DNA of 64,000 nucleotides, taken from the IMG/VR virus record IMGVR_UViG_3300027747_002427; one strand, given 5' to 3'. Numbering within the stretch: the stretch's first letter is position 1; every line of letters begins with the position of its first letter. Positions 1,989 to 29,358 of this stretch are shown piece after piece. A program made the position numbers and the translations under genes. The notes below the pieces were generated by a model. It worked only from the letters and a program-made list of their open reading frames with translations, did no database searches and was not told the DNA's origin. Origin of the DNA: a virus (Duplodnaviria; Caudoviricetes).

Positions 1989-2750
1989 ATGTTCAATAAA
2001 AAGGTCTTAATTAAATTTATAGCTGAAACCAAAGAATTTTTAGAAATAGCACCTAAACCAGAACCCAGCTCTCGCAATACCCCAGTTTGGTTTAAGAATA
2101 CTCCCTCTTATATAGACGATAAAAAAGGTATAGACTCTTATAGCGACCCTAATAGCACTATTAAGAAATGTATGCCAGTAGTAGATGCTATGACTTCTGG
2201 GTATCATATATTATTACCCTGTGATGTTTGGGTGTATAATGAAGGACAAGATAAGATAAAATTCCAATGGGCATGGGAAGATTTAGAAATAATATCTGGA
2301 ACTAGAAAGGAACAACACAATTTATATCCTACTCCAGATGGTTTTTATTCTACAGTATTTAAATGGATTAATCATTGGATAACCAAAACCCCAAAGGGAT
2401 GGTCTTGTTTGTTTACTCATCCTTTACATTATGATGATCTACCGTTTAAATGTTTAACCTCTATGGTTGACACAGACAAGTATCCTTCTCCAGTCCATTT
2501 CCCTTTCTTTCTCAGAAAGGATTTCAGCGGTTTGATTCCTAAAGGAACTCCTATTATGCAAGTGATACCTTTTAAGAGAGAACACTTTAAGTCTCAATTC
2601 TCTTATGATAGAGGACAATTCAAAAGACTTTGGGACAAGGCTCATACAGAATTCTTTGATAGATATTTAAAGAATTTTAGAACTCCTAAAAACTTTGAAC
2701 AAGGAGAAGTTGCTAAATGTCCATTTGCTTTTATGCATAAGGACAAGTAA
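1989..2750 (+). CDS. Conserved phage hypothetical protein (TIKKCMP...KTPKGWSCLF...IPKGTPIMQVIPFKRE type)
   Basis: 253-aa ORF; motif pattern familiar from aquatic phage proteins; function unknown. Confidence 0.6.
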   Translation: MFNKKVLIKFIAETKEFLEIAPKPEPSSRNTPVWFKNTPSYIDDKKGIDSYSDPNSTIKKCMPVVDAMTSGYHILLPCDVWVYNEGQDKIKFQWAWEDLEIISGTRKEQHNLYPTPDGFYSTVFKWINHWITKTPKGWSCLFTHPLHYDDLPFKCLTSMVDTDKYPSPVHFPFFLRKDFSGLIPKGTPIMQVIPFKREHFKSQFSYDRGQFKRLWDKAHTEFFDRYLKNFRTPKNFEQGEVAKCPFAFMHKDK

Positions 2751-3183
2751 GTATCTTAAATGGACTCTTACACAAGTAATCCTATATCACCGGTTCAAAC
2801 CGGCTTTGAAGCTAATGTAAATAAAAGTATAGCTGGTAATGTAACTGTAGAATTACCCACACCTAGTGTACCCCTCCATAAGAAAAAAGTTTCGGAGATT
2901 GCTGATTGTATAGAAAGAATAGTAAATCTTTTAACGAAAATCAAGAATTAAATTTAATGCAAAAACAAACCATAATAATACCAATACCAAGAAAGCCTAG
3001 CTTTGCTCAAAGAGAAGCATATATCAATGTAGAGATTGATAAGATTCAAAGAGATTTAATTTCAAAAGGCTTTAAACCTATTTCTTTTGAAGTTAATAGC
3101 AAGACGGATCAAAGAGCTAGTGTTACCTTTTATTTTCAAAAGTAGTTGACTTTGGTATACATTGACCTATTATTATAGGTCTT

Positions 3184-3624
3184 ATGAAATACACAAATGC
3201 AACATCAATTTGGTTTGGAAGTTTATCTTATACAAGTAATCTTCTTTCAAAGGTTATTCTTTGTAGCAAAACTCTAGTAGACTTTAGTCGCTGGTGTGAT
3301 ATCAATGCTAACCTAGCAGAAGATGAAGATTCTTTAATCTCAGCAGACTATTGGAATGGTTCAGAGAATGACATTATTAATATCTTTAGAGAGATAAATC
3401 ATCTTTCAGAAGAAGGACACGGATATCATGGCAAGTATCTATTAAAGCGTTTAAGCTTCTTAGCTAAAGAAGGTTTGAACCTTGCAGAAGGAATAGACTT
3501 CCTAAAATACCGTAAGCTTAGTGAAGATGAAGTAAATTCGGTTATCCTTTCTTCTAAGAAGTTTCGTAAGCCTCGCGTCTCTAAGAGAGATGCAAAGGGT
3601 AAATTTACATCTAAAAAGAAATAA
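3184..3624 (+). CDS. Hypothetical protein with basic C-terminal RDAKGKF motif
   Basis: 146-aa ORF. Confidence 0.5.
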   Translation: MKYTNATSIWFGSLSYTSNLLSKVILCSKTLVDFSRWCDINANLAEDEDSLISADYWNGSENDIINIFREINHLSEEGHGYHGKYLLKRLSFLAKEGLNLAEGIDFLKYRKLSEDEVNSVILSSKKFRKPRVSKRDAKGKFTSKKK

Positions 3625-5451: not shown

Positions 5452-5652
5452 ATGGAGACTAGAACTGTATCATTACTCAAAGCTATCTCTTATAGAATCC
5501 TTGGCTCTATAACTACCTTCCTCGCTTGTTTCTTCTTTACTGGTAAGCCTTTTATTTCATTAGGAGTATCTGTATTTGACTTCTTTGCAAAAACTATTCT
5601 ATACTATGTACACGAAAGAGCTTGGGAGCATATAAAGAAAAAATATAGTTGA
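5452..5652 (+). CDS. DUF2061 small membrane protein
   Basis: SLLKAISYRILGS...KTILYYVHERAW pattern. Confidence 0.75.
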   Translation: METRTVSLLKAISYRILGSITTFLACFFFTGKPFISLGVSVFDFFAKTILYYVHERAWEHIKKKYS

Positions 5653-5686
5653 GTATCCACATTTAAATCTATAATATATTTAAATC

Positions 5687-7513: not shown

Positions 7514-8370
7514 TATTTTTTATTATCCTTATACTTCATAAGTATAAGTGTGAAGGCTTCAAAGTCTAAAGAATACATTCAGGAAAAGGTTTTAAAAGAT
7601 TTCCAGAATGCTGCTAAAAAGTTTTATGAAGAAACTGAAAAAGAATATTTGGATGACCTTCGTAATAAAATGCGAGATGGTACAATAGATATTATTAATA
7701 GAAGTGTTAGTGAAATATCTATTGAATATGCAGAACAGTATCAAGATTATATAAAGAATTCCAAAAAGCTAGAAACCTTTATTAAAAATTACGTTAATGA
7801 TACTTTTGATTTGATATGTGATAGTCTTAGTGAAGACTTAATAGAACAGGAAGAAGCAGAAGAAGCTTTCTTAACTCTTAAACATATATTGACCGCCGGA
7901 AAGATTCATATAGACGAAGAGACTAAGATAAAAACAAAAAGACCTTCTAGAAAAAGAGATTGATTTATTATTATAATATAATATTATATTAATAATGAAA
8001 CACATAACTTATATTGTATATTGCATTTGCATGTATAGTTTGACTTTTCTACCTTTCTTTTACGTTATTTTTTGGAGAAATGCCAATCCGTGGTGGTTCC
8101 TATTAGCAGCGTTTATGGCTAATATGGTTTCTTCACCATCAGCTTGGGGTCTTACAGAACAATCCAAACAAGAAAAATTAATAATAACAGAAGATGACCC
8201 AAAATAACTTTGGATCGTTTGGACAAGAATCTAGCTTTAGTAATGAAGATTCTAAGGCACTTGATAGATGGTATCAAGAATATAGAAGAAAGGTTTTAAA
8301 TCTCCCTAAAGAATATAAACCTAAACGTAAAAAGAGATCGGGCAATTCCAAATATTAATCTTTAATATAT

Positions 8371-8631: not shown

Positions 8632-9108
8632 GCCGATACGTTGTACAACGATGGTCAGGAGCTGCTTGGTATGATTCTATGTGCTCTCCTTATGATACCA
8701 TGGGAGAAGTTAAAAAACATTTAAAAGATTATTCTTGGCATTATACCGAAGAAAATCCTTGTAGAATTAAAGATTATAAACCTAAAAAAGTTCAAAAGTA
8801 TTCTCCCAAATATAATTGGAATACCGACGAAGGAATAGTTATACAAAATCATTAAATTTGCGACCGTAAAAGGGAGTAAGTATATAGTGCACTCTGTTGA
8901 TCAACTTACGGTTAAATGGATGGGATTTTATAAAACTCCCGACGAAGCTCAAAGTGTGCTAGAAGATAAAACTAAAAGAGTAAGTGAAGGGTTTAATATA
9001 GTTTCTTCTTCAAAGCAATTAATAGATAACAATTCATTGTCTAAAAAGGATCTTTTACTTTTTAAATTTACAATAGTTAAAGCAGTCAAAGAGGGTAAGT
9101 AATAGATA

Positions 9109-18236: not shown

Positions 18237-18350
18237 GCTTCGAATGCGCTAGGAATTTGAGCAGCCTCCAGTACCCTACCCTCGGATTGTCACACCCTGT
18301 TCGCCCTGTTATTTCGGATCGAGGCTCTTCCGTGTTCTGATTATGTATAT

Positions 18351-18379: not shown

Positions 18380-18437
18380 GCCTATAATTTCTCAGAATCT
18401 TCTTTTCTTTTCCTACAATCCCTATTATAATAAGGGC

Positions 18438-18617
18438 ATGAAAAATAACAACACCACAGTAGACGAGTATTACGAGAACGTGATGAAGGCCGCTAAGACC
18501 CTGGAGGAGTACTATGAGAAGATGGCTAACTTCACTCCAGTTCCCGAGAACAAGAAGACCTATCAGATGTTTAGGAGGGAGATGAGGGATCTTTGGAAGA
18601 CCCACGCTGCCTATTAA
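18438..18617 (+). CDS. Cassette gene, 59 aa (MKNNNT...), missing from the ORF track
   Basis: TATAAT-6 nt-ATG; GC3-rich codons. Confidence 0.7.
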   Translation: MKNNNTTVDEYYENVMKAAKTLEEYYEKMANFTPVPENKKTYQMFRREMRDLWKTHAAY

Positions 18618-18656
18618 GATCTTGAGTTTTCCCACAATAACCTATATACTAAGAGT

Positions 18657-18896
18657 ATGAAAAATAAAAACAAGTACCCCATCAACGGATCGATCATGGA
18701 AGGCGTTAGTGTTCGCACAGGCGTCCATCAATATGATGATAAGAATAGAACGGTAGTAGAATTGACCTTCCAGGGCTATAATAGCTCCTATGTCCAGGTC
18801 ATAGATATTAACACCGCGGCGAGCCTTATTAAACAGCTTAGGGAGCAAGGTATTGCCCAGGCTGAGTATATTACAGCCGCCGAGGTATTCGCTTGA
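18657..18896 (+). CDS. Cassette gene (MKNK)
   Basis: Promoter repeat upstream; stop lies in the next -35 box. Confidence 0.75.
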   Translation: MKNKNKYPINGSIMEGVSVRTGVHQYDDKNRTVVELTFQGYNSSYVQVIDINTAASLIKQLREQGIAQAEYITAAEVFA

Positions 18897-18927
18897 TCTT
18901 TCCCCCTAAAACCTATATACTAATAGT

Positions 18928-19176
18928 ATGAAAAATAAAGAATACACCATCAATACAGATCCCAAGGGCCTCGACTACATCATTGGTAACTACCATATGT
19001 ATCGAAGCGATGTCTACGATGCCTTGGAGAAGCTTCAGCAATACCTAGATGATTCTCACGTTAAAGCCGTTCTAGAGAGCGAGGATCCTGAGATTCAAGA
19101 GCGTTTGAGTGAGGAGTGCCTCCATCTTGACTTCACTACCTTTCTAGAGGATCTCAAAGGAGCCATGGGATACTAA
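18928..19176 (+). CDS. Cassette gene (MKNK)
   Basis: Promoter repeat upstream. Confidence 0.75.
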   Translation: MKNKEYTINTDPKGLDYIIGNYHMYRSDVYDALEKLQQYLDDSHVKAVLESEDPEIQERLSEECLHLDFTTFLEDLKGAMGY

Positions 19177-19351
19177 ATAGATATATGATCGAAGATACTA
19201 CCAAGCATCCGACTGGTGAGTTACCCCCTACTCCGGAGCCTCCTAAGTTCCCAGAGCCTGTGATAGCTCCCCCAGTACCTGCACCTACAAACGAATAACC
19301 CTATCACATTTGGTTCTTGAGTTTTCCCACTAAACCCTTTATACTTAAAGT

Positions 19352-19537
19352 ATGAAAAATAAGAACACCGTAAAGGATATCGTCACCCACCTGGAGTCCA
19401 CGGGCAAGTCCCCGGACTACATCATCGGAACCCTGATGGCCATGCTCGATGGTCTCACCTATGAGTATAGTGGGACCGCGCAGCAGACCATCGATAGTTA
19501 CATCAACCACCACCTCAACCCCAATACCAACGCCTAA
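19352..19537 (+). CDS. Cassette gene (MKNK), KSPDYII paralog family
   Basis: Promoter repeat upstream; similar to ORFs 15630 and 32795. Confidence 0.75.
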   Translation: MKNKNTVKDIVTHLESTGKSPDYIIGTLMAMLDGLTYEYSGTAQQTIDSYINHHLNPNTNA

Positions 19538-19538
19538 T

Positions 19539-19877
19539 ATGGGAGCCTACATCTACCGCCTCAAGGGCAGCAAGGCCTTCACTCTGATGAAGATTGATGG
19601 CCAGATCCAGCGAGTCTATGACTACGTCTATTGGTACAAGCCTTACTATACCGGCATGTTCGAGAGTGAGCCTAAGTGGATGAAGCCTGTTCGAATGCTT
19701 GATACTCGCCTCCGTAACGCGTTTGCAAAGGTTGAGCCTGTTAAGTGGGTTCGCCACGTCAATGATATGGGAGAGAAAGATGACTACATTATGGAGTGGC
19801 CTGGCGGTATTAGCATTAGCGATTACAACGAGCGCTATCAGAATGCTCGTAGGATCCCAGTAAGCGATTTGGCTTGA
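19539..19877 (+). CDS. Hypothetical protein coupled via TAATATG
   Basis: Start MGAYIYRL directly after the upstream TAA; stop in the next -35 box. Confidence 0.65.
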   Translation: MGAYIYRLKGSKAFTLMKIDGQIQRVYDYVYWYKPYYTGMFESEPKWMKPVRMLDTRLRNAFAKVEPVKWVRHVNDMGEKDDYIMEWPGGISISDYNERYQNARRIPVSDLA

Positions 19878-19908
19878 GATTTCCCCCTAAACCCATTATA
19901 CTAATAGT

Positions 19909-20109
19909 ATGAAAAATAAAGACCACGACGAGATCATCACCACCCACAACCACCGCCTCATCCGCCTTGACGCCCAGAAGAAGTTCGTCGAGCAGATGAT
20001 TAAGGACCTTCAGGTGCAATATACTACCCTCAGCGATGACTGGGACGAGACCTGGAGGAGCCGGCAGTATTACATTAACAGAGAAGAAGAGAGTGCCGTT
20101 ACCACCTAA
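19909..20109 (+). CDS. Cassette gene (MKNK)
   Basis: Promoter repeat upstream. Confidence 0.75.
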   Translation: MKNKDHDEIITTHNHRLIRLDAQKKFVEQMIKDLQVQYTTLSDDWDETWRSRQYYINREEESAVTT

Positions 20110-20128
20110 ACCCTAGATAATAATATAT

Positions 20129-20572
20129 ATGAATAAGAAAGCCACCTCACCGCTCCTAGAGCTCACCGCCACCTCCTCCTATAATAGCCTCCAGAAGGCC
20201 GTAGAAGGCCGTTGTAAAGACCGTAGTCGCGAAGGCAATGTAGGTCTTACCTTCTCTATCTTTGAGACAAATAAGACCTTGGATAAGGGTCTGGATAGTG
20301 GAGACTGGATTGTCAATCACCCAGATATCTTTGATGAGGGCGCCGTATTCGAAGGTAAGTGCGTCTTCTATAGCGATTACTGGAGGATCTCTGATAAAGA
20401 GGTCTACAGCGAAGTAATGGAACACCCAAGCTGGAGGGAGATCATTAGCGAATGTAATCGCCAGTTGATTGATCAAGAGGATGGTAGCACCGCTTGCCTC
20501 TTCCTCGAGGGCTTTACCGAGATGGAACCTAAAGACGGAGTCCGAGTCTTCGAGATCGATTGGGGTTCTTAG
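20129..20572 (+). CDS. Hypothetical protein
   Basis: Partial promoter repeat upstream; HVFLEGF-like CLFLEGF motif. Confidence 0.6.
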   Translation: MNKKATSPLLELTATSSYNSLQKAVEGRCKDRSREGNVGLTFSIFETNKTLDKGLDSGDWIVNHPDIFDEGAVFEGKCVFYSDYWRISDKEVYSEVMEHPSWREIISECNRQLIDQEDGSTACLFLEGFTEMEPKDGVRVFEIDWGS

Positions 20573-20610
20573 AGGTTGACCTTTCCCCCTAAATCCTTTA
20601 TACTAAGAGT

Positions 20611-20850
20611 ATGAAAAATAAAGCATATCAGTTCTCCATCATGTCGGAAGAAGAACGCTCTATACATCTCTTTTATACCATTGAAGGTATGGTAGAGACC
20701 TTAGAGCTGATTGGTAAGCAGCTTGATACAGAAGCTCTTAATGGAGCCTCTCGCCTCGCTAAGCTTGCAGATATTAACGAAGAGATCGAATTACTCTTCT
20801 TGAGAGTTCACAAAGACTACCACGCAAACAAAACCAAGGAAGCCATCTAA
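20611..20850 (+). CDS. Cassette gene (MKNK)
   Basis: Promoter repeat upstream. Confidence 0.75.
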   Translation: MKNKAYQFSIMSEEERSIHLFYTIEGMVETLELIGKQLDTEALNGASRLAKLADINEEIELLFLRVHKDYHANKTKEAI

Positions 20851-21085
20851 TATGACCTATAGGAAACTAATCGCCCATCTCCAAGAGAAATACGCAGAGC
20901 ATCTGGATGATCCTGTAAAGCTCGAGTCTATGCACGATAACGCGATTTATCACGTGTTTAGCGCGCGTACAGCGCATAAAGATGTGCCTTATGACGACAT
21001 CAAAGAGGATGATCTCATTCTACTAATCGAATATCCACACTAATTGGGGGTTGACTTTTCCCCGGTAATCCGTTATACTAATAGT

Positions 21086-21757
21086 ATGAAAAATAAGAAC
21101 AAGCAAAAGAAGATTTCCAGGAAACAAGCCATCGCTGATTCCCGGGTACCAGTAAAGGTTTCCCGGAAACGTATTCCCAAGAACGAGCGTATCAACAAGG
21201 CAGACCAGTTTGAATACCTAGGAATTGATACCTGGGTAAAGACTTTCCAGGGAACTAAGAAGTTCCCACATAATAAGATTACCTGTTCTGAATGCCGGCA
21301 TAATACGGTTTCCATGTTTGGTAACCAGCTAGCGAATTACCTGGCAAAGTATAACGGGGATACCCGGAAACTCCTTACCGAGTTCAAGTGTCGCGTATGT
21401 CGTTCCCTGGACAAAGAGGCTATCAAGTTGAAGGAGCCTAAAGAGCCTAAGGTAAAGGTAGAAAAGGAAAAGGTATTCCTTTCCCCGGAAGAGTGGGAAG
21501 CTCGTAAGGAGGAGGTTCGTAAGACCCTTCCTAAGATGGATCCTAACTACCAAACCCAGGAAATCGATTTGGTTAAGGACAAGGAGACGTGTTCCCAGGT
21601 AACAGCCATGGCATGCTGGCGCCCAGACATCTTCCTCAATCTCGGATGCGCCGAGTGTGTTCTACAGAAGAATTGTGCTTGTCCAATTAAGGATATCAAT
21701 CGTATTCCAGACAATCGCCCAAGGAAATTCAAGAGGGCAGTAACGAAAGCCGCTTGA
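21086..21757 (+). CDS. Cassette gene (MKNK), Cys-rich putative zinc-binding protein
   Basis: CSEC...CRVC and a C-terminal C..C...CAEC...CAC cluster. Confidence 0.7.
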   Translation: MKNKNKQKKISRKQAIADSRVPVKVSRKRIPKNERINKADQFEYLGIDTWVKTFQGTKKFPHNKITCSECRHNTVSMFGNQLANYLAKYNGDTRKLLTEFKCRVCRSLDKEAIKLKEPKEPKVKVEKEKVFLSPEEWEARKEEVRKTLPKMDPNYQTQEIDLVKDKETCSQVTAMACWRPDIFLNLGCAECVLQKNCACPIKDINRIPDNRPRKFKRAVTKAA

Positions 21758-22001
21758 TAAACGTTTAACCTATAGTATTATTTTAATATGCACGTATGGC
21801 AATCAAAGAGAGTTTTAAAGACAGGACCTATCTACCAAGTACCTACTTGGGTAAAGAACCGACCGAAGGCAATAGCTACAGCGGACTGGGAGCAGATGGT
21901 AAAGGACTTCAAGTTCAACAAGCTTATTGTACTAGATAAGGTTCCTAAGACTAGTAAGAAAAAGAATTTCGCAACAAACGAAAGAAAGGAAAACAACAAC
22001 A

Positions 22002-22238
22002 ATGACAAAAACAATCGCTAATACGATCGTTCGCAATATCAGTGATCTCACTGGCCGCACTGTCTCCAGCCGTACAGGCAAGGCAGCAAAGCTTGAGCTG
22101 ATCTCTGAGAGCATCAATGAGAGTCGCTATGAGATTCTCGGTCTCGTTGGACGCAGTAATAACGTCATGCTTCGCCCACGTTTTCACAACGTGCGTAACA
22201 AGCAGGGCCGCTTCACTGCTCGCCGCCGCAGCCGCTAA
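22002..22238 (+). CDS. Small basic protein with RNKQGRF motif
   Basis: 78-aa ORF with GC3-rich codons. Confidence 0.6.
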   Translation: MTKTIANTIVRNISDLTGRTVSSRTGKAAKLELISESINESRYEILGLVGRSNNVMLRPRFHNVRNKQGRFTARRRSR

Positions 22239-22243
22239 AGATT

Positions 22244-22322
22244 AAGGGTCTAGTGAATAGATTGCAGGGAGAGCCTGCTCGGGAAGTTTTTATTCCTCAT
22301 TGAACACACTAGACCTTTTTCT
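22244..22322 (+). terminator. Branched terminator-like RNA
   Basis: 12-bp closing stem (22244-22255/22307-22318) with two internal hairpins, then a T run. Confidence 0.5.
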
Positions 22323-22628
22323 TTCTTTTTAGATTGACATTTCCCCCTTAATCCTTTATTATATATACATGATTGATTCAAACCTGTATCGCAAAATTGA
22401 AATGGCCGGCGAAGCACTTCTCGCTGATTACAAGCTAACCTATCCTGATATGAGTGATAGTCAGATCCGTACAGATCTTCTTCTTAATCACGGATCGAAG
22501 GTTATACACATGAGTGTAGATAATGATCTCCTAGAAGGAATCATTGATAGCGATCGTCAAGACGATCCAGAGTACAAGGCTCTCCTTCTTATAGCTGGAG
22601 TATACTTCGTAACCCTCTAACCCTTTAT

Positions 22629-22704
22629 GCCTGTGTAGTCCAACGGCAGAGACAAGCGACTTAAAATCGCTCCAGTATCGGTTCGAATCCGATCACAGGT
22701 ACCA
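22629..22704 (+). tRNA. tRNA-Leu(UAA), short variable loop
   Basis: GCCTGTG/CACAGGT acceptor stem, AGCGA-CTTAAAA-TCGCT anticodon arm, GTTCGAATC, encoded CCA. Confidence 0.85.
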
Positions 22705-23293
22705 CTTTAAGATTGACCTTTCCCACCAATTGCTATAATATATAAACAATGAAACACCTCCTACACCTCTTAGGGTTTACTCAACGTAAGCCTTCACTCC
22801 TCCTCATGCATATGTGTGACGTCACTCACGGCACCTGGCTTCAGGATCTTTATCGTACCAATCGTCTTAGCGACTACAACGTAAAGAAGTAACATGATCT
22901 GGCCTAAAGACCCTCCAGTGACTCGTTCCGAATTCCGCCGAGCTTTGAATCTTCATTGTCATAATAAGCTTGGAGTCAGCTTCAGTGACCTTCCAGACAT
23001 TATCAATATCGATGACGTATGGTGGGAGGGACAGACCATTGGAGAAGCTCTCACTATGATTAACAGTTGTATTGAAGACTTTAAAGAAGAAATGGGTGTT
23101 GCACTTTCCCACTAACAGGAGTATAATAATAATAATATGATCATCGAATTCTCACCTGGCAAGTTACCAAAGAGTAAAGAAGCTTTGAAGGATATTATCC
23201 TCGAAGCAGTCAAGAAGTCTTCAACGAACCCTGATGCCGTTAATGCCGGCCGACAGCCTCAGGACAATAATACAAAGGCCGGCGTTACTCAAT

Positions 23294-23512
23294 ATGCAAA
23301 CTAAAGTCACACTCACGGATCTAATTCGTAATATCTTGACCGCAGAGCAGGAGTTGTCCGTAAAGGATATCCTTACTAAAGTACAAGAGACTATTGCAGG
23401 CGAGCAGCTGACCATCAAGGCCGATTACCGTAAGGTTTATCGTCACCTTCGTACGTGCGCCACTAAGACGGCACGCGGTCAGTTCTCCCTCACCGAGACC
23501 TCTGCCTCCTAA
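23294..23512 (+). CDS. Small winged-helix-like protein
   Basis: LIRNIL...LSVKDIL...KVYRHLR...RGQFSL pattern. Confidence 0.45.
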   Translation: MQTKVTLTDLIRNILTAEQELSVKDILTKVQETIAGEQLTIKADYRKVYRHLRTCATKTARGQFSLTETSAS

Positions 23513-23536
23513 AGGTAAGTCTCGGCAACCATCAAC

Positions 23537-23627
23537 ACTGGGTTAATGTAATTGGAAGCATCGCACAGCTTATATCTGTGAATCCCTAGATGAGGGACGA
23601 GCATCGGTTCGATTCCGATACCCAGTA
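23537..23627 (+). tRNA. Atypical tRNA, anticodon UAU, long variable arm
   Basis: ACTGGGT/ACCCAGT; ATGT/GCAT D stem; CACAG-CTTATAT-CTGTG; TCCCT/AGGGA variable stem; ATCGG-TTCGATT-CCGAT. Confidence 0.75.
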
Positions 23628-23816
23628 CTTTTTATGACAGACACCAACACAACATCGAAAGAAGCAAAAGTATTCGCACTCTGCCAGGACCTGGAAGATA
23701 TGCGAGATCGTAAGAAGGCATCTAGCAAAGCCTTTAGCGATGAGATCAAGCGTATTCAAGCGGAGATCAAGGATCTTATAGATCCTTCCGAGCCTGAAGA
23801 AGCTCCATAGTATTAC

Positions 23817-23889
23817 GCCCTTGTAGCTCAATGGTCAGAGCAGTCGGCTCATAACTGATTGGTTGGGGGTTCGAATCCCTCCGGGGGCA
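23817..23889 (+). tRNA. tRNA with CAU anticodon (Met or Ile2)
   Basis: Cloverleaf with a CTCATAA loop. Confidence 0.85.
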
Positions 23890-23895
23890 CTCTAT

Positions 23896-23971
23896 GCATC
23901 GGTAGCTCAGTGGATAGAGCAGGGGTTTTCTAAACCCTTGGTCGCAGGTTCGATCCCTGCCCGATGTACCA
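23896..23971 (+). tRNA. tRNA-Arg(UCU)
   Basis: Cloverleaf with a TTTCTAA loop and encoded CCA. Confidence 0.9.
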
Positions 23972-23974
23972 TTT

Positions 23975-24046
23975 GGAATCGTAGCTCAATGGTAGAGCAG
24001 TAGACTTTTAATCTATTGGTTATGGGTTCGAGTCCCATCGATTCCA
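23975..24046 (+). tRNA. tRNA-Lys(UUU)
   Basis: Cloverleaf with a CTTTTAA loop. Confidence 0.9.
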
Positions 24047-24127
24047 CTTTAATACAACAGCATGATATAATAGCGCCGGCCTCTCTATTATCGTGAATTT
24101 TCCCACTAAATGATTGATACTAATAGT

Positions 24128-24298
24128 ATGAAAAATAACAACAGTGCAGTTGCAGCAGAGATCGAAGCGCTCCACCAGGAGATCGCTACCCTCAAGGCCC
24201 AGATCAAAGATCTGGTTAACGTCACCAACAACAACAAAGAGGTCCTCTTCGATCTTCTCGAAGTCCTCAAGAACCCAGCCTCAGCATACCTCGTCTAA
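24128..24298 (+). CDS. Cassette gene (MKNN), coiled-coil
   Basis: Promoter repeat upstream. Confidence 0.7.
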   Translation: MKNNNSAVAAEIEALHQEIATLKAQIKDLVNVTNNNKEVLFDLLEVLKNPASAYLV

Positions 24299-24302
24299 TA
24301 AT

Positions 24303-24671
24303 ATGGCAACACGTTCCCAAGTTAAGTTCTCCGATCGCGGAGTAGTCGCAGCTAATATCTATGTCCACTATGATGGATACCCAGAAGGTGAAGCTGGTCG
24401 TCTCAATCAGCTTCAGCGCTTCTTTAAGTGTGTGAAGGAGAATTGCAGAGACACTCGCTTTCATGATGCAGAGTATCTTGCAGCCAAGTACATCGTTTGG
24501 TATGCTACAGAGTATTGTAAGGATGAGGAGAATCCCAAGCATGCTCTAGACTTCTCAGGCATTGGAATCTGTCTCGAGGACCATGGTGACATTGAGTACA
24601 CCTACCTGGTTGATTGTGACCATCACGATCCAGAGACTGGGTTCCCTACCGTCGATGTTAGGAAGCGGTAA
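24303..24671 (+). CDS. Conserved phage protein (MATRS...IYVHYDGYPEG type)
   Basis: Recognisable IYxHxDGYP motif. Confidence 0.7.
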   Translation: MATRSQVKFSDRGVVAANIYVHYDGYPEGEAGRLNQLQRFFKCVKENCRDTRFHDAEYLAAKYIVWYATEYCKDEENPKHALDFSGIGICLEDHGDIEYTYLVDCDHHDPETGFPTVDVRKR

Positions 24672-24738
24672 CATTTGAGGTGGTAAGGGGGGAAAGATTG
24701 TGGTGGTCTTTCCCCCCAAATCTCTTTATACTAAGAGT

Positions 24739-24891
24739 ATGAAAAATAAGAACACCGTCAAAGCCACCACAGTCATCAAGAACATCCGCCGCATGATCAG
24801 CCAGCCGGCCATGCAGGGACCGAAGCACCAGGCCTGGAGGGAGTCCTGGTTGCACGTCATCAAAGGTCTTGAGAGGGGCGAATCGATTTGA
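24739..24891 (+). CDS. Cassette gene (MKNK)
   Basis: Promoter repeat upstream; stop in the next -35 box. Confidence 0.7.
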   Translation: MKNKNTVKATTVIKNIRRMISQPAMQGPKHQAWRESWLHVIKGLERGESI

Positions 24892-24922
24892 TTTTCCCCC
24901 ATAAATCCTAGATAATAAATGT

Positions 24923-25147
24923 ATGAAAAATAAGAACACATTCGAAGAGATCATGAACGAGTACAAGGCCCTGGACCAGATGTTCAAGCAGATGGTCCGC
25001 AACACCGCGGTGATGGAGCTCAAGGAGTGGGGCGTCGAGGAGATCGGAAGCTCGGACGTGAACTGCCAGATCGTCGACCTCTACAACAGCTACGGCGGAT
25101 TCGACGAGATTGTCCGACATGGGTTGGACCTTGTCCGTAGCCGATAA
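24923..25147 (+). CDS. Cassette gene (MKNK)
   Basis: Promoter repeat upstream. Confidence 0.75.
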   Translation: MKNKNTFEEIMNEYKALDQMFKQMVRNTAVMELKEWGVEEIGSSDVNCQIVDLYNSYGGFDEIVRHGLDLVRSR

Positions 25148-25185
25148 GGATTGAAATTCCCACCTAAACCTCATATAATAATAGT

Positions 25186-25506
25186 ATGAAAATTAAGAAT
25201 GCACGTATGCAGTGGAGCAATGAAAAGCGTACCACGAAGTCCGTCCTCTACTTCTTCCCGGTTGGAGAGACCATCATAGACAACCTCGCTATGCGCCGTA
25301 AACGCCCTATAAAAGAGTTTCGCGCACTTATACCTGAAGTATGCGCAGCAGTAGGTCTCAATATGGCAGACCATAAGTTCAGCTGGAGCCAGAAGGCAGG
25401 TTGCTCTTGCGGTTGCTCGCCTGGCTTCGTAGTAAAGCATCTCTATAGTAAGCAGATCTTCTGCGATGTTACCATGGACAATGACTTCGAGGGTCTTGGC
25501 CTTTAA
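25186..25506 (+). CDS. Cassette gene (MKIK) with AGCSCGCSPGF motif
   Basis: Promoter repeat upstream; CxCxC metal-binding motif seen in other phage proteins. Confidence 0.75.
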   Translation: MKIKNARMQWSNEKRTTKSVLYFFPVGETIIDNLAMRRKRPIKEFRALIPEVCAAVGLNMADHKFSWSQKAGCSCGCSPGFVVKHLYSKQIFCDVTMDNDFEGLGL

Positions 25507-25543
25507 GATTGTCTTTCCCACCTAAACCCAATATAATAATAGT

Positions 25544-25816
25544 ATGAAAATTAAACAATACGTTATAGACCTCCTCACGTTCGGCTTCGTTGCTCTGGCC
25601 TTCAGTGCAGCAAGCGCCGGCCTCACCGCTGCCTACTATCAGCACCTCGCCGTGGTTCACAATGCCGCAACGTACGAGGCAAGCAGCTGGGGTAATGTAA
25701 GCTTCCACTGGAACGATGTTAGCTACGCGCAAGCACCCTTCCAAGACCCAGCGGAGACCCAGAAGAAAATGGATGACGCCTTCGCTAAAGAACTCAAAGC
25801 CAAAGGCATCAAGTAA
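25544..25816 (+). CDS. Cassette gene (MKIK), membrane protein
   Basis: Promoter repeat upstream; N-terminal hydrophobic helix. Confidence 0.75.
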   Translation: MKIKQYVIDLLTFGFVALAFSAASAGLTAAYYQHLAVVHNAATYEASSWGNVSFHWNDVSYAQAPFQDPAETQKKMDDAFAKELKAKGIK

Positions 25817-26078
25817 CACCTAACACCTACCTAATATGAAAATCACAGCTTCCACTAAAGAGAAACTTAAGCACGTGTCCTATGTAGTCGAGGACGTACC
25901 TAACTTCGGAACAGCCATTTACACTGATGTGTACAACGAGAATGATAGGATAGTCGATAGCTTCATTCGTACCGAAGACGGATACGCAATCGAAGCACCG
26001 GCTCTCTTCGAGACCATTCAGGACTTTGTATGCAGCAATAGTGTTGAGGTTTCTCCCTAAATGCTTTATACTAAGAGT

Positions 26079-26399
26079 ATGAAAAATAAGAACACCACAC
26101 TGACCGAGCTCGAAACCCAAATCCTCACCCTCCTGTTCAAGGACGCCGAGGGCAACGGCCACGACTTCGGCATCATCGAGAACCTCAGCGACTACGAAGG
26201 CGTCGACATGAAGGTCGCGCGCGGAGTCCTCAGCTCCCTGGTCCAGAAAGACATCATCACCATCCACGAGTATCGCTTCGAGATGGGAATGGAACAGGGC
26301 TGCACCCAGTTCACCTGGAACCACGTTCCCGCCGATATCTACCCAGAGAGCATCACCCACGTACTCCCAGAGAATGTAACCCTGGGAGTTGCAGCTTGA
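26079..26399 (+). CDS. Cassette gene (MKNK), possible winged helix
   Basis: Promoter repeat upstream; ARGVLSSLVQKDII resembles a wHTH; stop in the next -35 box. Confidence 0.7.
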   Translation: MKNKNTTLTELETQILTLLFKDAEGNGHDFGIIENLSDYEGVDMKVARGVLSSLVQKDIITIHEYRFEMGMEQGCTQFTWNHVPADIYPESITHVLPENVTLGVAA

Positions 26400-26430
26400 G
26401 ATTCCCACCTAAACATAATATAATAATAGT

Positions 26431-26673
26431 ATGAAAAATAAGAACATCCACCAACAGTATCAGGAAATCATCGACTCCATCAAGGCCCTCGGCACGGTCC
26501 GCATCCAGGAGGCTCTGGCGAACCTCGAGAAGGACTTCCAACTAACCTCCAACGTCTATGCTCGTATGGGACTCCTCGGAAGGATCCAGATGCATGAGAG
26601 GGCTCTCAAGGAGCTTACCAACACCGAGAAGAGCCTGGAGATCCTCGACGAAGCCTTTGCCACCCACGCCTAA
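26431..26673 (+). CDS. Cassette gene (MKNK)
   Basis: Promoter repeat upstream. Confidence 0.75.
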   Translation: MKNKNIHQQYQEIIDSIKALGTVRIQEALANLEKDFQLTSNVYARMGLLGRIQMHERALKELTNTEKSLEILDEAFATHA

Positions 26674-27094
26674 TATGGAACAACCTCCTAAAGATTATCA
26701 ACTGAAGTTAGTCATCGAGAAGCTGGAGAAGAGTTTAGACAAGCTCTCTGTCCTCGAATACGAAATCAAAGACGCCCTAATGTTAGCAGCAGACCTCTAC
26801 GAGAGAATCACCAACAACAACGACTAATATGAAGATCGAAACCAAAGCCTACGAAGTCCTAGAAGAGCTGATGGACGGAACCAACAAGCTAGAGAAGCTC
26901 TATAGAGCAGCAACTCATCGCCCAGACTCACCTTGGATTGAGAAGCCAGGACGCTTCGCAGACTGGGTAGGAGGCCAAATGCTAGAGGCCATGGAAGAAG
27001 AGCTTAGGCACCTAGAGCAGAGGTTCATTACAGATGAAGCTCTCCTAGCCATGGTAGATAAGAGCTAATATCATTTTCATACCCGCGGTGGGGT

Positions 27095-27130
27095 AAGGGA
27101 GGAGGTCTGTGGTGGGCCTCCTCCCTTTTT
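27095..27130 (+). terminator. Intrinsic terminator
   Basis: AGGGAGGAGG...CCTCCTCCCT-TTTT. Confidence 0.8.
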
Positions 27131-27168
27131 GTATTGTCTTTCCCCCATAAAGAGATTATAATAATAGT

Positions 27169-27534
27169 ATGAAAATTGAGAACACCACACCCACCGAAGC
27201 CCAAATCGAACTCGCCGGATACCTCCTCACGCGCGAGGTAACCTTCACCGAGGAGTGCGAGGCCAACCCCAAGATCCAGTGGTTCGCCGTGGCCAGCTAC
27301 ACCCTCGAGGACATCATGGGCCTCACCCCCTACCGCAGCGGCTACGCGGACATCGCCGAGTACGAGCACCAGGAGGACCTCATCGAGGCCAAGGAGGCTC
27401 GTAAGAACTCCTACTATGACTACGACGACGAGCAGCGCGCCTGGTTCGAGAAGGAAGAAGAGGCTCATCGAAACGCTCTCAAGGAGCTGGTGAGTTCCGA
27501 GTACAAGCCACTGGGGGTAGGACTCCCCCTTTAA
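27169..27534 (+). CDS. Cassette gene (MKIE), acidic
   Basis: Promoter repeat upstream; almost all codons end in C/G. Confidence 0.75.
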   Translation: MKIENTTPTEAQIELAGYLLTREVTFTEECEANPKIQWFAVASYTLEDIMGLTPYRSGYADIAEYEHQEDLIEAKEARKNSYYDYDDEQRAWFEKEEEAHRNALKELVSSEYKPLGVGLPL

Positions 27535-27572
27535 GGCTTGGCTTTCCCCCTTACTTGATAGATAATAATAGT

Positions 27573-27803
27573 ATGAACAATAAGATCACCATTGGAGAGT
27601 TAAAGAAAGGTCAGCGATTCAAGTACGGCAACAGCGGCATCTATGAGTGCGCCAACCCGTACTGGCCTCAGGCCCGGAACCCAGCCTACCGCTCAGCTAA
27701 GATCATCGTGGTAGTTCCATCAATCAACCCGGAGGCTACCTACCCAACAGTACCAGGCCAGTGTGTCACCTTCAATCACAGGACCAAAGTGGAGCTCCTT
27801 TAG
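27573..27803 (+). CDS. Cassette gene (MNNK)
   Basis: Promoter repeat upstream. Confidence 0.7.
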   Translation: MNNKITIGELKKGQRFKYGNSGIYECANPYWPQARNPAYRSAKIIVVVPSINPEATYPTVPGQCVTFNHRTKVELL

Positions 27804-27840
27804 ACTTTCTTTTCCCCCATAACCATTATATAATAATAGT

Positions 27841-28062
27841 ATGAAAAATAAGAACATCGAAGTAGGTTCCATCGTCACCCTCAACTCCAACACCGATCGT
27901 GTCCACCGCGTCACCAAGGTCGATGAGTTCGGCATCTGCACAACGCCAGCGGGAGGCCAGCCAGAGTACCAGTCCAGGTACGGCTCCTTCCCTCTCGCTT
28001 CCTGGGAGGTTGTTACCCTCGCTACAGAGGAGCAGCTCAAGCTAGTAGGCACCTGGCGCTAA
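27841..28062 (+). CDS. Cassette gene (MKNK), SH3/KOW-like
   Basis: IEVGSIVTL...HRVTKV pattern; promoter repeat upstream. Confidence 0.7.
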   Translation: MKNKNIEVGSIVTLNSNTDRVHRVTKVDEFGICTTPAGGQPEYQSRYGSFPLASWEVVTLATEEQLKLVGTWR

Positions 28063-28101
28063 GGGGTTGACCTTTCCCCCATTATAGGTTATACTTATAG
28101 T

Positions 28102-28404
28102 ATGAAAAATAAGAAGACCCAATACACCGCCACAGCCCCTAACGGAGACGTCCTCAGCGTCACCTCCACGCGCCCGCTGGTCGAGTGCCACGTCGCCATC
28201 AACAAGGAGACCAACGCCACGGGAGCCTACCGCTGGACCATCAAGCGCCAGGGCAAGGCCTCCGCCTCCTCCTGCGGCTACAGCTTCGGCTACGTGGGTA
28301 GCTGGTGCACGGACGCTGCCAAGTACAATGCCGAGGCCGACAAAGAGAAGGCCTTGCGCAACGCCAAGTACACCTTCCACATCGTCCCAGTGGTCGCCGC
28401 CTAA
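28102..28404 (+). CDS. Cassette gene (MKNK)
   Basis: Promoter repeat upstream. Confidence 0.75.
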   Translation: MKNKKTQYTATAPNGDVLSVTSTRPLVECHVAINKETNATGAYRWTIKRQGKASASSCGYSFGYVGSWCTDAAKYNAEADKEKALRNAKYTFHIVPVVAA

Positions 28405-28624
28405 GCTTAACGACCGCGGTCGGATACCTACCGGTCTTAATAGCGACCAGGGGTAATACTACCGACCGCGGTATGCTAGGACCCCGGACGTTCAAATTTG
28501 TTAATAGGGGAATAGCAAGCAGAAACGGCCGGGGGGCAATCCCGCGTATATAGGGGGGTACCCTGGTATTAAATCGCCAAAGTATTAAATTGCTATTCCC
28601 TTATATAAGTAATAATATATTTTA

Positions 28625-28993
28625 TATGAAAAATAAAGATCAAATCATGTTAGAGTCTCTGTATACTAATAGTATGAAAAATAAGAACACCAAGCCCGCC
28701 CTCAAAGCTCTCTTCCCTGGCCAGGAGGTCTCTGTAATGGGCTTCAGGGAGTATGGTAAAGTTATCGAGCGTCAAAAGGAGAAGGTTATGGGCAATACTG
28801 TCTATAGGGTCAAGTGTGAGGGTAAGGAGTTTAATGTATCTCGCCGTCAACTTGGCGTTCGAGTTAACAATATCTTTAAGTTCGGTCCTTACAATACAAC
28901 CGATCTTCCTGCTTGAAGTTCTAATCAAATTCCCTTATACTAATAGTATGAAAAATAAAGATCAAATCATGTTAGAGTCTCTGTATACTAATA
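28625..28993 (+). repeat. 47-bp exact direct repeat (28625-28671 and 28947-28993)
   Basis: TATGAAAAATAAAGATCAAATCATGTTAGAGTCTCTGTATACTAATA occurs twice, 322 bp apart. Confidence 0.95.
28674..28916 (+). CDS. Cassette gene (MKNK), SH3/KOW-like, between the 47-bp repeats
   Basis: FPGQEVSV...GKVI...VYRVKC pattern; stop in the next -35 box. Confidence 0.7.
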   Translation: MKNKNTKPALKALFPGQEVSVMGFREYGKVIERQKEKVMGNTVYRVKCEGKEFNVSRRQLGVRVNNIFKFGPYNTTDLPA

Positions 28994-29358
28994 AGGTATT
29001 GAAAGAGGACGAAGAGAATGGAGATAATGTATTAAAGAAGTATACCTATGAGATTCTTTATAGAACTGATTACAAATATGATCCTAAGACAAAGAAGGCT
29101 ATAAGTTGGTCTTATGGTTCTCATTCTAGAGGTTGGCCGGATCTCCGACATGAATTTGCTTATTCTGATGATGATTTTTGGTCTAAGATAGATGATTCTG
29201 GATATAGTGGTGGTAAGGATGAATTAAGAAAATCCATAGTTATTAAAAATGTTGAACCTGCTGATTTGAGAGAGGTTGAGCATGAGAAGAGAAAAAATAA
29301 GGCTATATCAGATTATTATAGTAATGCGAGTAAGACGGGTTCTTATTCGGGTGATTAG
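28948..29358 (+). CDS. Hypothetical protein with DQIMLESLY N-terminal motif
   Basis: Start reassigned to the promoter-linked ATG. Confidence 0.65.
   Translation: MKNKDQIMLESLYTNKVLKEDEENGDNVLKKYTYEILYRTDYKYDPKTKKAISWSYGSHSRGWPDLRHEFAYSDDDFWSKIDDSGYSGGKDELRKSIVIKNVEPADLREVEHEKRKNKAISDYYSNASKTGSYSGD

Follow-up and report, generated by a model that had tools for sequence, protein, structure and literature searches.

Repeated early-promoter cassettes have already been proposed as drivers of modular gene capture in T4-type bacteriophages (PMC2839356). The promoter-early stem-loop (PeSL) cassettes of phages RB49/phi1, PST and nt-1 (Arbiol et al. 2010, PMC2839356; Comeau et al. 2014, PMC4122927) run from the stop codon of an upstream gene to the start codon of the downstream gene, include a sigma70-like early promoter, and form the crossover point of ORFan insertions and deletions (PMC2839356). 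Here we describe a related arrangement in a 64,000-nucleotide (nt) viral sequence (IMG/VR record IMGVR_UViG_3300027747_002427), referred to in its entirety as the window, in which an island of small genes is punctuated by copies of a promoter cassette, and nine of these genes end inside the promoter of the gene that follows. An original prediction held that the repeat provides an ATG at its 3' end and a stop at its 5' end, so that any fragment captured between two repeats would automatically receive promoter, start and stop, which would favor gene capture or de novo gene birth. Our analysis leads to a more modest reading: the promoter-embedded stops are probably a by-product of compaction and repeat-guided shuffling in a leaderless, stem-loop-less variant of the PeSL type, where they would act as a passive backstop.

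The likeness to PeSL regions is threefold: repeated sigma70-like early promoters lie among the small ORFan genes of a T4-like phage; close relatives differ by insertions, deletions and replacements whose crossovers fall inside the repeats; and the cassettes have been proposed as vehicles for modular shuffling and gene capture. There are also differences. The island has no general stem-loop (one of 20 junctions folds significantly better than shuffled sequence), its cassettes carry no Shine-Dalgarno sequence and place the -10 box 6 nt from an ATG at which messages are predicted to start without a leader, and 12 nt of the coding region (MKNKN) are part of the repeat. In the island, upstream stops lie at or inside the -35 box, whereas those of PeSL units lie in an AT-rich stretch upstream of that box; neither PeSL paper describes promoter-internal stops or promoter-coded protein tails (PMC2839356, PMC4122927). 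The island works like a PeSL region but fails two of its defining features, the general stem-loop and the Shine-Dalgarno sequence. In PeSL units a stable polyG/polyC stem-loop adjoins the promoter and serves as terminator or attenuator, the 3' end carries a Shine-Dalgarno sequence together with the start codon (the island cassettes have the latter), and mini-circles of the cassettes form in infected cells.

Results

Promoter cassettes and the stop codons within them

The cassette, ~50 nt in length, is of sigma70 type and comprises a -35 box (TTGAnn), a 17-nt spacer (in the window mostly TTTCCCCCTAAA...; 16-17 nt across the -35 sites), a -10 box (TATACT or TATAAT), the 6 nt AATAGT, and ATG AAA AAT AAG AAC. 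Conservation of the repeat extends from about -7 to +50, its last 15 bases being the start codon and four conserved codons. Some 25 copies occur in the window and ~95 across six phages, with canonical -35 and -10 boxes at a fixed 17-nt spacing; all lie on the coding strand immediately 5' of genes, and ~25 of the ~36 island genes are directly preceded by one. When the region from 18.0 to 29.6 kb was scanned with the consensus, 40 promoter-like sites were found against 16.9 +/- 3.5 in shuffles, a 2.4-fold excess. No Shine-Dalgarno sequence precedes any cassette ATG and, because the 6-nt gap (AATAGT) between -10 box and ATG leaves no room for a ribosome-binding site, the messenger RNAs (mRNAs) are predicted to begin at the ATG itself. 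In leaderless mRNA of the type made from the PRM promoter of the lambda cI gene, transcription begins at the A of the AUG.

The island and the promoters that contain an upstream stop are as follows (genes and promoters are named hereafter by their first coordinate).

18403..28962, + strand: island of ~36 small same-strand genes and ~25 promoter cassettes; GC content 42-53% against ~33% in the flanks
18893..18942, + strand: cassette (TTGATC, 17 nt, TATACT, aatagt, ATGAAAAATAAAGAA); its TGA closes gene 18657..18896 (...EVFA-stop)
19874..19923, + strand: cassette; the TGA at 19875-19877 closes gene 19539..19877 (...SDLA-stop)
20093..20143, + strand: decayed promoter, with GTGCCG for TTGACC; the TAA at 20107-20109 closes gene 19909..20109, whose tail SAVTT-stop is coded by the ex-promoter
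21754..21790, + strand: divergent promoter (TTGATA, 16 nt, TATTAT); its TGA closes gene 21086..21757 (...KAA-stop)
22894..23115, + strand: gene without a promoter of its own, coupled to the preceding gene by TAAcATG; its tail VALSH-stop is coded by the next -35 box and spacer
23099..23139, + strand: promoter (TTGCAC, 17 nt, TATAAT, 9 nt, ATG); the spacer TAA at 23113-23115 closes gene 22894..23115
24888..24937, + strand: cassette; the TGA at 24889-24891 closes gene 24739..24891 (...ESI-stop)
26044..26093, + strand: cassette; the spacer TAA at 26058-26060 closes gene 25836..26060, with the promoter-coded tail (L)EVSP-stop
26396..26445, + strand: cassette; the TGA at 26397-26399 closes gene 26079..26399 (...GVAA-stop)
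28913..28962, + strand: cassette with a spacer of the type found in relatives; the TGA at 28914-28916 closes gene 28674..28916 (...DLPA-stop)

All nine stops originally proposed to lie within the next promoter are placed correctly. Six are TGA codons formed by bases 2-4 of a -35 hexamer (18894-18896, 19875-19877, 21755-21757, 24889-24891, 26397-26399 and 28914-28916; the hexamers are, in this order, TTGATC, TTGAGA, TTGATA, TTGATT, TTGAGA and TTGAAG), preceded by GCT in five cases and by ATT in one. The other three are TAA codons (20107-20109, 23113-23115 and 26058-26060), each at +14 from the first base of the -35 box within the spacer motif CC(C/A)C-TAA. Outside the island, two further TGA stops fall within the TTGA of promoter-like sites (5649-5654, TTGAGT; 7960-7965, TTGATT) that have TATAAT-like boxes downstream, and promoters of the cassette type without MKNK starts are found near 3146, 10949 and 29826.

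Stem-loop formation was assessed by folding at 20 junctions, 17 of which gave no signal and two of which were marginal; only 24682-24727 folded far better than its shuffles (-23.8 kcal/mol, z -3.9). Terminators are few in the island, with three terminator-like hairpins in 11.6 kb, including the following two.

24687..24717, + strand: strong terminator-like hairpin, its 3' arm formed by the -35 box and spacer of promoter 24704; the sole clearly PeSL-like stem-loop
27095..27127, + strand: terminator-like hairpin that precedes promoter 27134

In a lake metatranscriptome library (X4), contigs 100% identical to the island (18610-28185) bridge several cassettes; these could be read-through transcripts or DNA carry-over. 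Joints in contigs from X4 and from the DNA runs were rejected as evidence of recombination, as their sides of 27-45 nt lie in repeats, and breaks in the assembly or the presence of relatives are the likeliest source.

Closure of reading frames by the repeat

Two phases, that of the TGA and the one ending in ATGA, are closed by all 19 canonical window repeats. The remaining phase, which is aligned with the next ATG, is closed by the TAA at +14 in 12 of them and left open in seven; among the relatives, closure of all three is limited to 25-50% of repeats. None of the window genes ends on the third-frame (ATGA) stop. Frames are thus often but not automatically closed, given the seven repeats with an open ATG phase and the unused ATGA stop, and the proposal that a captured fragment is automatically equipped with promoter, start and stop falls on these counts. 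The companion statement, that the repeat supplies an ATG at its 3' end and a stop at its 5' end, stands insofar as the MKNKN start comes from the repeat and its 5' part closes incoming frames, but not for the ATG phase as a whole. A promoter-borne stop costs zero or one extra residue for the TGA in TTGA and ~5 promoter-coded residues for the TAA at +14 of TTTCCCCCTAAA. These stops need no selection of their own, because they are inherent in TTGA and ATG-A.

Truncated and inherited protein termini

Comparison with homologs divided the nine families unevenly. In five (18657, 19909, 22894, 25836 and 26079) the tail is truncated or replaced at the repeat, as the original prediction envisaged; in the other four (21086, 24739, 28674 and 19539) homologs keep the same end, contradicting a general replacement of termini.

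Among the former, the ortholog of 18657 in a syntenic relative of the island (G001) is nine residues shorter and has its own TAG at -5, and two other members, L028 and L025, are cut soon after a conserved QL and stop in the spacer; in these, CAG-CTT-GAC is read as Gln-Leu-Asp and serves as the -35 box at once. The L043 homolog of 19909 has a tail 15 residues longer, ending at its own TAA at -5 before an intact TTGACC promoter; the window gene and its L044 homolog lack that tail and read through the ex-promoter GTGCCG to its TAA, yielding SAVTT-stop. This configuration in the window appears to be a deletion, after which the frame runs through the former promoter. Gene 22894 is absent from G001, in which the same promoter, with the same TAA unused, directly follows the previous gene. 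Its homologs in G002, G005 and L028 are full-length, with C-terminal tails 10-20 residues longer, and those in G004 and L027 have been truncated independently at another promoter (LECSP-stop); the window tail VALSH-stop is the in-frame reading of TTGCAC-TTTCCCAC-TAA. Gene 22894..23115 looks like a captured, 3'-truncated gene, promoterless and closed by the TAA of the next promoter. The tail of 25836 differs in every homolog, each stopping at its next element. Nineteen homologs of 26079 have a core in common as far as ..D(L/V)(L/F)P, followed by AA, VA, LEVSH, LEVSI or an immediate end, and the DNA of L035 and L038 identifies LEVSH-stop and LEVSI-stop as translated TTGAGG-TTTCC....

Among the families that keep their ends, 21086 terminates in KAA-TGA in both the window and G001 (where GCT-TGA lies in TTGACA), and distant homologs end in AA-TAA, in one of them (L021) with no promoter behind. 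The homologs of 24739 in G004 and L027 end in ..GSI with a stop in a promoter spacer, the window protein in ESI. DLPA is the end of 28674 in six of ten alignment members, and since GCT-TGA precedes three different downstream promoters, this junction travels with the upstream gene. The L043 homolog of 19539 ends in SDLT, with ACT-TGA in its own -35 box, and the G002 homolog in ISIKK-TAA, coupled to the next gene.

At the opposite end, the start and first five codons are common to unrelated island proteins, and the MKNKN start belongs to the repeat, distant homologs of 26079 beginning MAK.., MLK.. or with longer extensions. One such homolog, on L039 (positions 2430-2900; a contig of JGI 3300075147), resides in another phage type, where consecutive genes are preceded by a different ~40-nt repeat (TTCCCTCCAGAACATAAACCCTTAAAATAGAAAGA.ATAAT) that ends at the ATG or 3 nt before it. 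Promoterless genes within island units are joined by TAAtATG or TAAcATG without a Shine-Dalgarno sequence (19535-19541, 20848-20854, 22890-22896, 26671-26677 and 26825-26831), an arrangement that suggests termination-reinitiation coupling.

The island genes are established, real genes. Between the window and G001, the ratio of nonsynonymous to synonymous substitution rates (dN/dS) is 0.04-0.22 in 12 of 15 measurable pairs, a sign of purifying selection, and the protein cores are conserved across many homologs from lake metagenomes. Recent de novo birth, the second outcome that the repeat had been proposed to favor, is contradicted by the low dN/dS, the conserved cores and the many metagenomic homologs.

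Gain, loss and crossover of cassettes among relatives

A search of IMG/VR for the cassette retrieved more than a dozen lake-metagenome contigs that carry it. G001 is syntenic with the island at 70-89% DNA identity, and G002 contains shared genes in scrambled order. Five cassette-size differences distinguish the window from G001 (window positions 18454-18627, 18938-19315, 19519-20088, 22876-23098 and 24739-24891), four of them bounded by repeats, and several other cassettes have been replaced between the two. Where repeats flank a difference on both sides, the single repeat of G001 is a hybrid. The clearest instance is the G001 repeat at 8637, a clean left/right chimera that matches window repeat 24704 as far as the C-run and repeat 24888 from TAAATCC onward; window cassette 24888 has no counterpart in G001. 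Crossovers between close relatives lie in repeats, as they do in PeSL cassettes. A further rearrangement is marked by an exact duplication.

28626..28672 and 28948-28994, + strand: exact 47-nt duplication of the 5' end of gene 28948, its copies flanking the inserted cassette 28674..28947

The duplication ends at a chance TATACTAATA inside gene 28948 and is the trace left by crossing over with the -10 part of a repeat. Gene 28674 is in frame with the upstream copy and could be made from promoter 28590 in a form longer by 16 residues (MKNKDQIMLESLYTNS-MKNKN...). Two insertions of ~650 bp present in G001 and not in the window (2658-3323 and 7600-8229 of contig L020) correspond to window position 18268 and to a point between tRNA genes at 23924-23947. 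With respect to gene capture, the original prediction is borne out in part: 22894..23115 looks captured, and cassettes have been gained, lost and reordered with crossovers in repeats, but the idea itself was already in print for T4-type phages (PMC2839356).

Frequency and context of the overlaps

All six TGA stops among the 36 island genes are those of -35 boxes, the other 30 genes ending in TAA or TAG. The absence of TGA from these 30 contrasts with its use by 23 of 93 open reading frames (ORFs) outside the island (Fisher p ~0.001), or p ~0.03, by hand calculation, when the outside ATGA overlaps are left out. Among 24 island gene-to-promoter junctions, nine stops lie inside the promoter, eight abut it (3-12 nt before the -35 box) and seven are farther away, with a terminator, a tRNA or non-coding DNA in between. 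Outside the island, the stop overlaps the next start in 21 of 72 same-strand pairs, mostly as ATGA, and 13 of the 23 TGA stops are ATGA overlaps. This genome usually borrows its TGA stops from whatever functional element comes next and, in the island, that element is the promoter. Promoter-internal stops are not in excess, either against all outside pairs (9/24 vs 21/72, p = 0.46) or among tight junctions (9/17 vs 21/47, p = 0.58); the overlap frequency, which had been put forward as a check on the capture proposal, is that of compaction elsewhere in the genome.

The stops of 69 junctions in six phages are concentrated at -5 (18 junctions), +1 (15) and -6 (13). A bias in the frame of the upstream gene (39:20:10, p = 8e-5) was considered as a sign of selection for the TGA phase and rejected, as -5 and +1 are the two tightest positions; the apparent preference arises because stops pile up at the closest positions.

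The alanine codon before the -35 TGA has a more complex background. In G002-G005, TTGA directly follows a G (70%) and a C (91%) regardless of the upstream sequence; in the window, GC occupies -2/-1 at five of six TGA-overlap junctions and at one of the 19 others (p = 0.0006), and in G001 at none. A full account of GCT-TGA as a conserved part of the repeat was therefore rejected, being true for G002-G005 and not for the window or G001. We infer that GCTTGA is an older consensus, kept in the window lineage where it is locked as an alanine codon plus stop. In 21086 and 28674, alanine is the native last residue.

Genomic and phylogenetic setting

The window (~33% GC) belongs to a large phage that encodes nrdA/nrdB, purA, a GMP-reductase-like gene and 16 tRNAs, and its DNA occurs in sequencing runs of freshwater and lake metagenomes. 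By megablast the island matched none of 50,697 phage records, and there is no close relative among sequenced phages. Ten island proteins compared with Pfam and PHROG yielded no credible family, the matches to DnaD_N and to an intein being weak and below curated cut-offs. A Gp23-type capsid protein (PF07068) is encoded by the cassette-bearing relatives G001, G002, G003 and G005, so that the capsid evidence comes from relatives. The island appears to be a hyperplastic early-gene region of an uncultured freshwater T4-like phage, its T4 type being read from the capsid gene of those relatives; with that capsid and the ten family-less proteins, the setting is ORFan-rich in a T4-like phage, as for PeSL regions.

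Third-position GC content (GC3) is 0.7-0.87 in many cassette genes and 0.37-0.5 in others, and the islands of relatives are also raised in GC (43-49%). One possibility is that early genes are tuned to host codon use before the phage tRNAs for AT-rich codons appear; another is a mixed origin. Between gene 28102..28404 and promoter 28590 lies a 190-nt GC-rich non-coding stretch (28405-28590) of repeated GACCGCGGT-like words, 90 nt of which (28423-28512) are common to G001. The tRNA-Ile (anticodon TAT) called by ARAGORN at 23537-23628 is, at 92 nt, unusually long for one without a long variable arm, and may contain an insertion or be a miscall. Recoding of TGA was considered and rejected: none of the 16 tRNAs has anticodon TCA, and translation table 11 leaves the nrdA frame uninterrupted, with an alignment that covers 98% of its length.

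Discussion

We regard as probable a history in which compaction and repeat-guided shuffling together left stops inside promoters. Nearly every transcription unit would start with one host-type (sigma70-like) promoter cassette and, with tight packing, the upstream frame would either halt at the promoter edge (-5 to -7) or enter the promoter, which would hold a stop for each phase: TGA in TTGA, TAA at +14, and TGA in the ATGA at the next start. Embedded stops could then arise in two ways. In one, a native end (..AA, ..PA or ..SI) would be overlaid by a -35 box and the junction inherited with the gene, as in 21086, 28674, 24739 and 19539, the last two of which keep their ends in close relatives. 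In the other, a deletion or crossover at a cassette border would remove the native 3' end and the promoter would close the frame, leaving a short promoter-coded tail, as in 19909, 22894 and the families of 26079, 18657 and 25836. The repeats would be the sites at which homologous or microhomology recombination lets relatives swap, lose and gain cassettes, and the embedded stops, which would come free with a sigma70 promoter, would make these rearrangements harmless with no selection for gene birth.

Several observations weigh against this account. Tails are not more variable in overlapping genes than in free ones when the closest homolog is compared (4/6 vs 9/20, p = 0.64), and over all pairs, which are non-independent, the difference has p = 0.054. 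Most gain and loss events may be either insertions in one lineage or deletions in the other. The restriction of GC at -2/-1 to overlapping window junctions is only partly explained. Finally, promoter activity and leaderless starts are deduced from the nucleotide sequence.

Compaction on its own, with the overlaps as the promoter-side equivalent of ATGA overlaps and no connection to rearrangement, would account for an overlap rate that matches the remainder of the genome (9/24 vs 21/72), for the pile-up of stops at the nearest allowed positions, -5 and +1, and for the native termini kept in four of nine genes. We nevertheless think it unlikely as a complete explanation, since tails in five families are cut short or exchanged at the repeat and include promoter-coded residues, and the repeats are where the window and G001 mostly differ in the cassettes that they contain. 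At the other extreme, the island might be a dedicated platform for capture or gene birth, its cassette selected to equip any DNA between two repeats with promoter, start and stop. Such a platform could explain why a start and five codons are stamped on unrelated proteins and missing from distant homologs; it also draws on the 12 of 19 window repeats that close all three phases, on 22894 and 19909 as fragments closed by promoter stops, and on a cassette GC3 ranging from 0.37 to 0.87, a hint of mixed origins. We judge it quite unlikely, because the ATG-aligned phase is open in seven of the 19 and in most repeats of relatives, no window gene ends at the third-frame stop, stops that come with the very sequence of TTGA and ATGA require no selection, and the overlap rate equals the genome-wide rate of stop/start overlap; the low dN/dS and conserved cores argue against a recent de novo origin, and no tested island protein matched a cellular or known family that could point to a source of captured fragments. 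A broader form, to which we assign a similarly low likelihood, would see the cassette as an integrase-free expression adaptor kept by selection, its 5' edge closing frames and its 3' edge providing promoter, leaderless start and a five-codon translation enhancer, and the island as a gene-capture platform in freshwater T4-like phages. Were this so, illegitimate capture of promoterless, stopless gene fragments would become productive, as with 22894..23115 and 19909..20109.

It is very improbable that translational coupling drew the stops toward the next ATG, for re-initiation on read-through transcripts at starts without a Shine-Dalgarno sequence. The lack of that sequence before any cassette ATG is in keeping with coupling, as are the TAAtATG and TAAcATG junctions of promoterless genes within units, the scarcity of terminators in the island and the RNA-library contigs that bridge several cassettes (possibly DNA carry-over); but 32 nt still separate a stop at +1 from the ATG, stops at -5 are about equally common, and a promoter for each gene makes coupling unnecessary. 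We find it scarcely credible that the repeats are recombination sites or RNA-level signals and not promoters, with the TTGA match incidental. Their spacer is indeed more conserved than sigma70 recognition requires, but canonical -35 and -10 boxes with a fixed 17-nt spacer recur in ~95 copies in six phages, at a 2.4-fold excess over shuffles and always on the coding strand directly 5' of genes, and T4-type early promoters offer a precedent (PMC2839356).

Placed beside other compact or modular arrangements, the island shares with the ATGA and TAATG overlaps of phage and bacterial operons the use of the next functional element's bases as a stop, but that element is here a promoter hexamer and not a start codon, so that no translational coupling is implied. 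Its cassettes resemble integron gene cassettes and phage morons in being single-gene modules that gain expression in new surroundings. They differ from morons in that a shared repeat borders the mobile unit, which lacks its own terminator. Neither an integrase nor an attC-like site turned up, although no search was aimed at them.

These findings open no new question about gene birth. On the reading that we favor, compaction combined with repeat-guided shuffling, they show how a phage could reshuffle, truncate and rejoin tiny early genes without leaving open or fused frames: a host-type promoter set against the previous gene would end its translation however the junction is redrawn. For annotation they carry a warning that, in many small phage proteins, the final one to six residues may represent promoter and not fold. 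They would also extend the PeSL idea to an uncultured clade of lake phages, whose cassettes have neither stem-loop nor ribosome-binding site.

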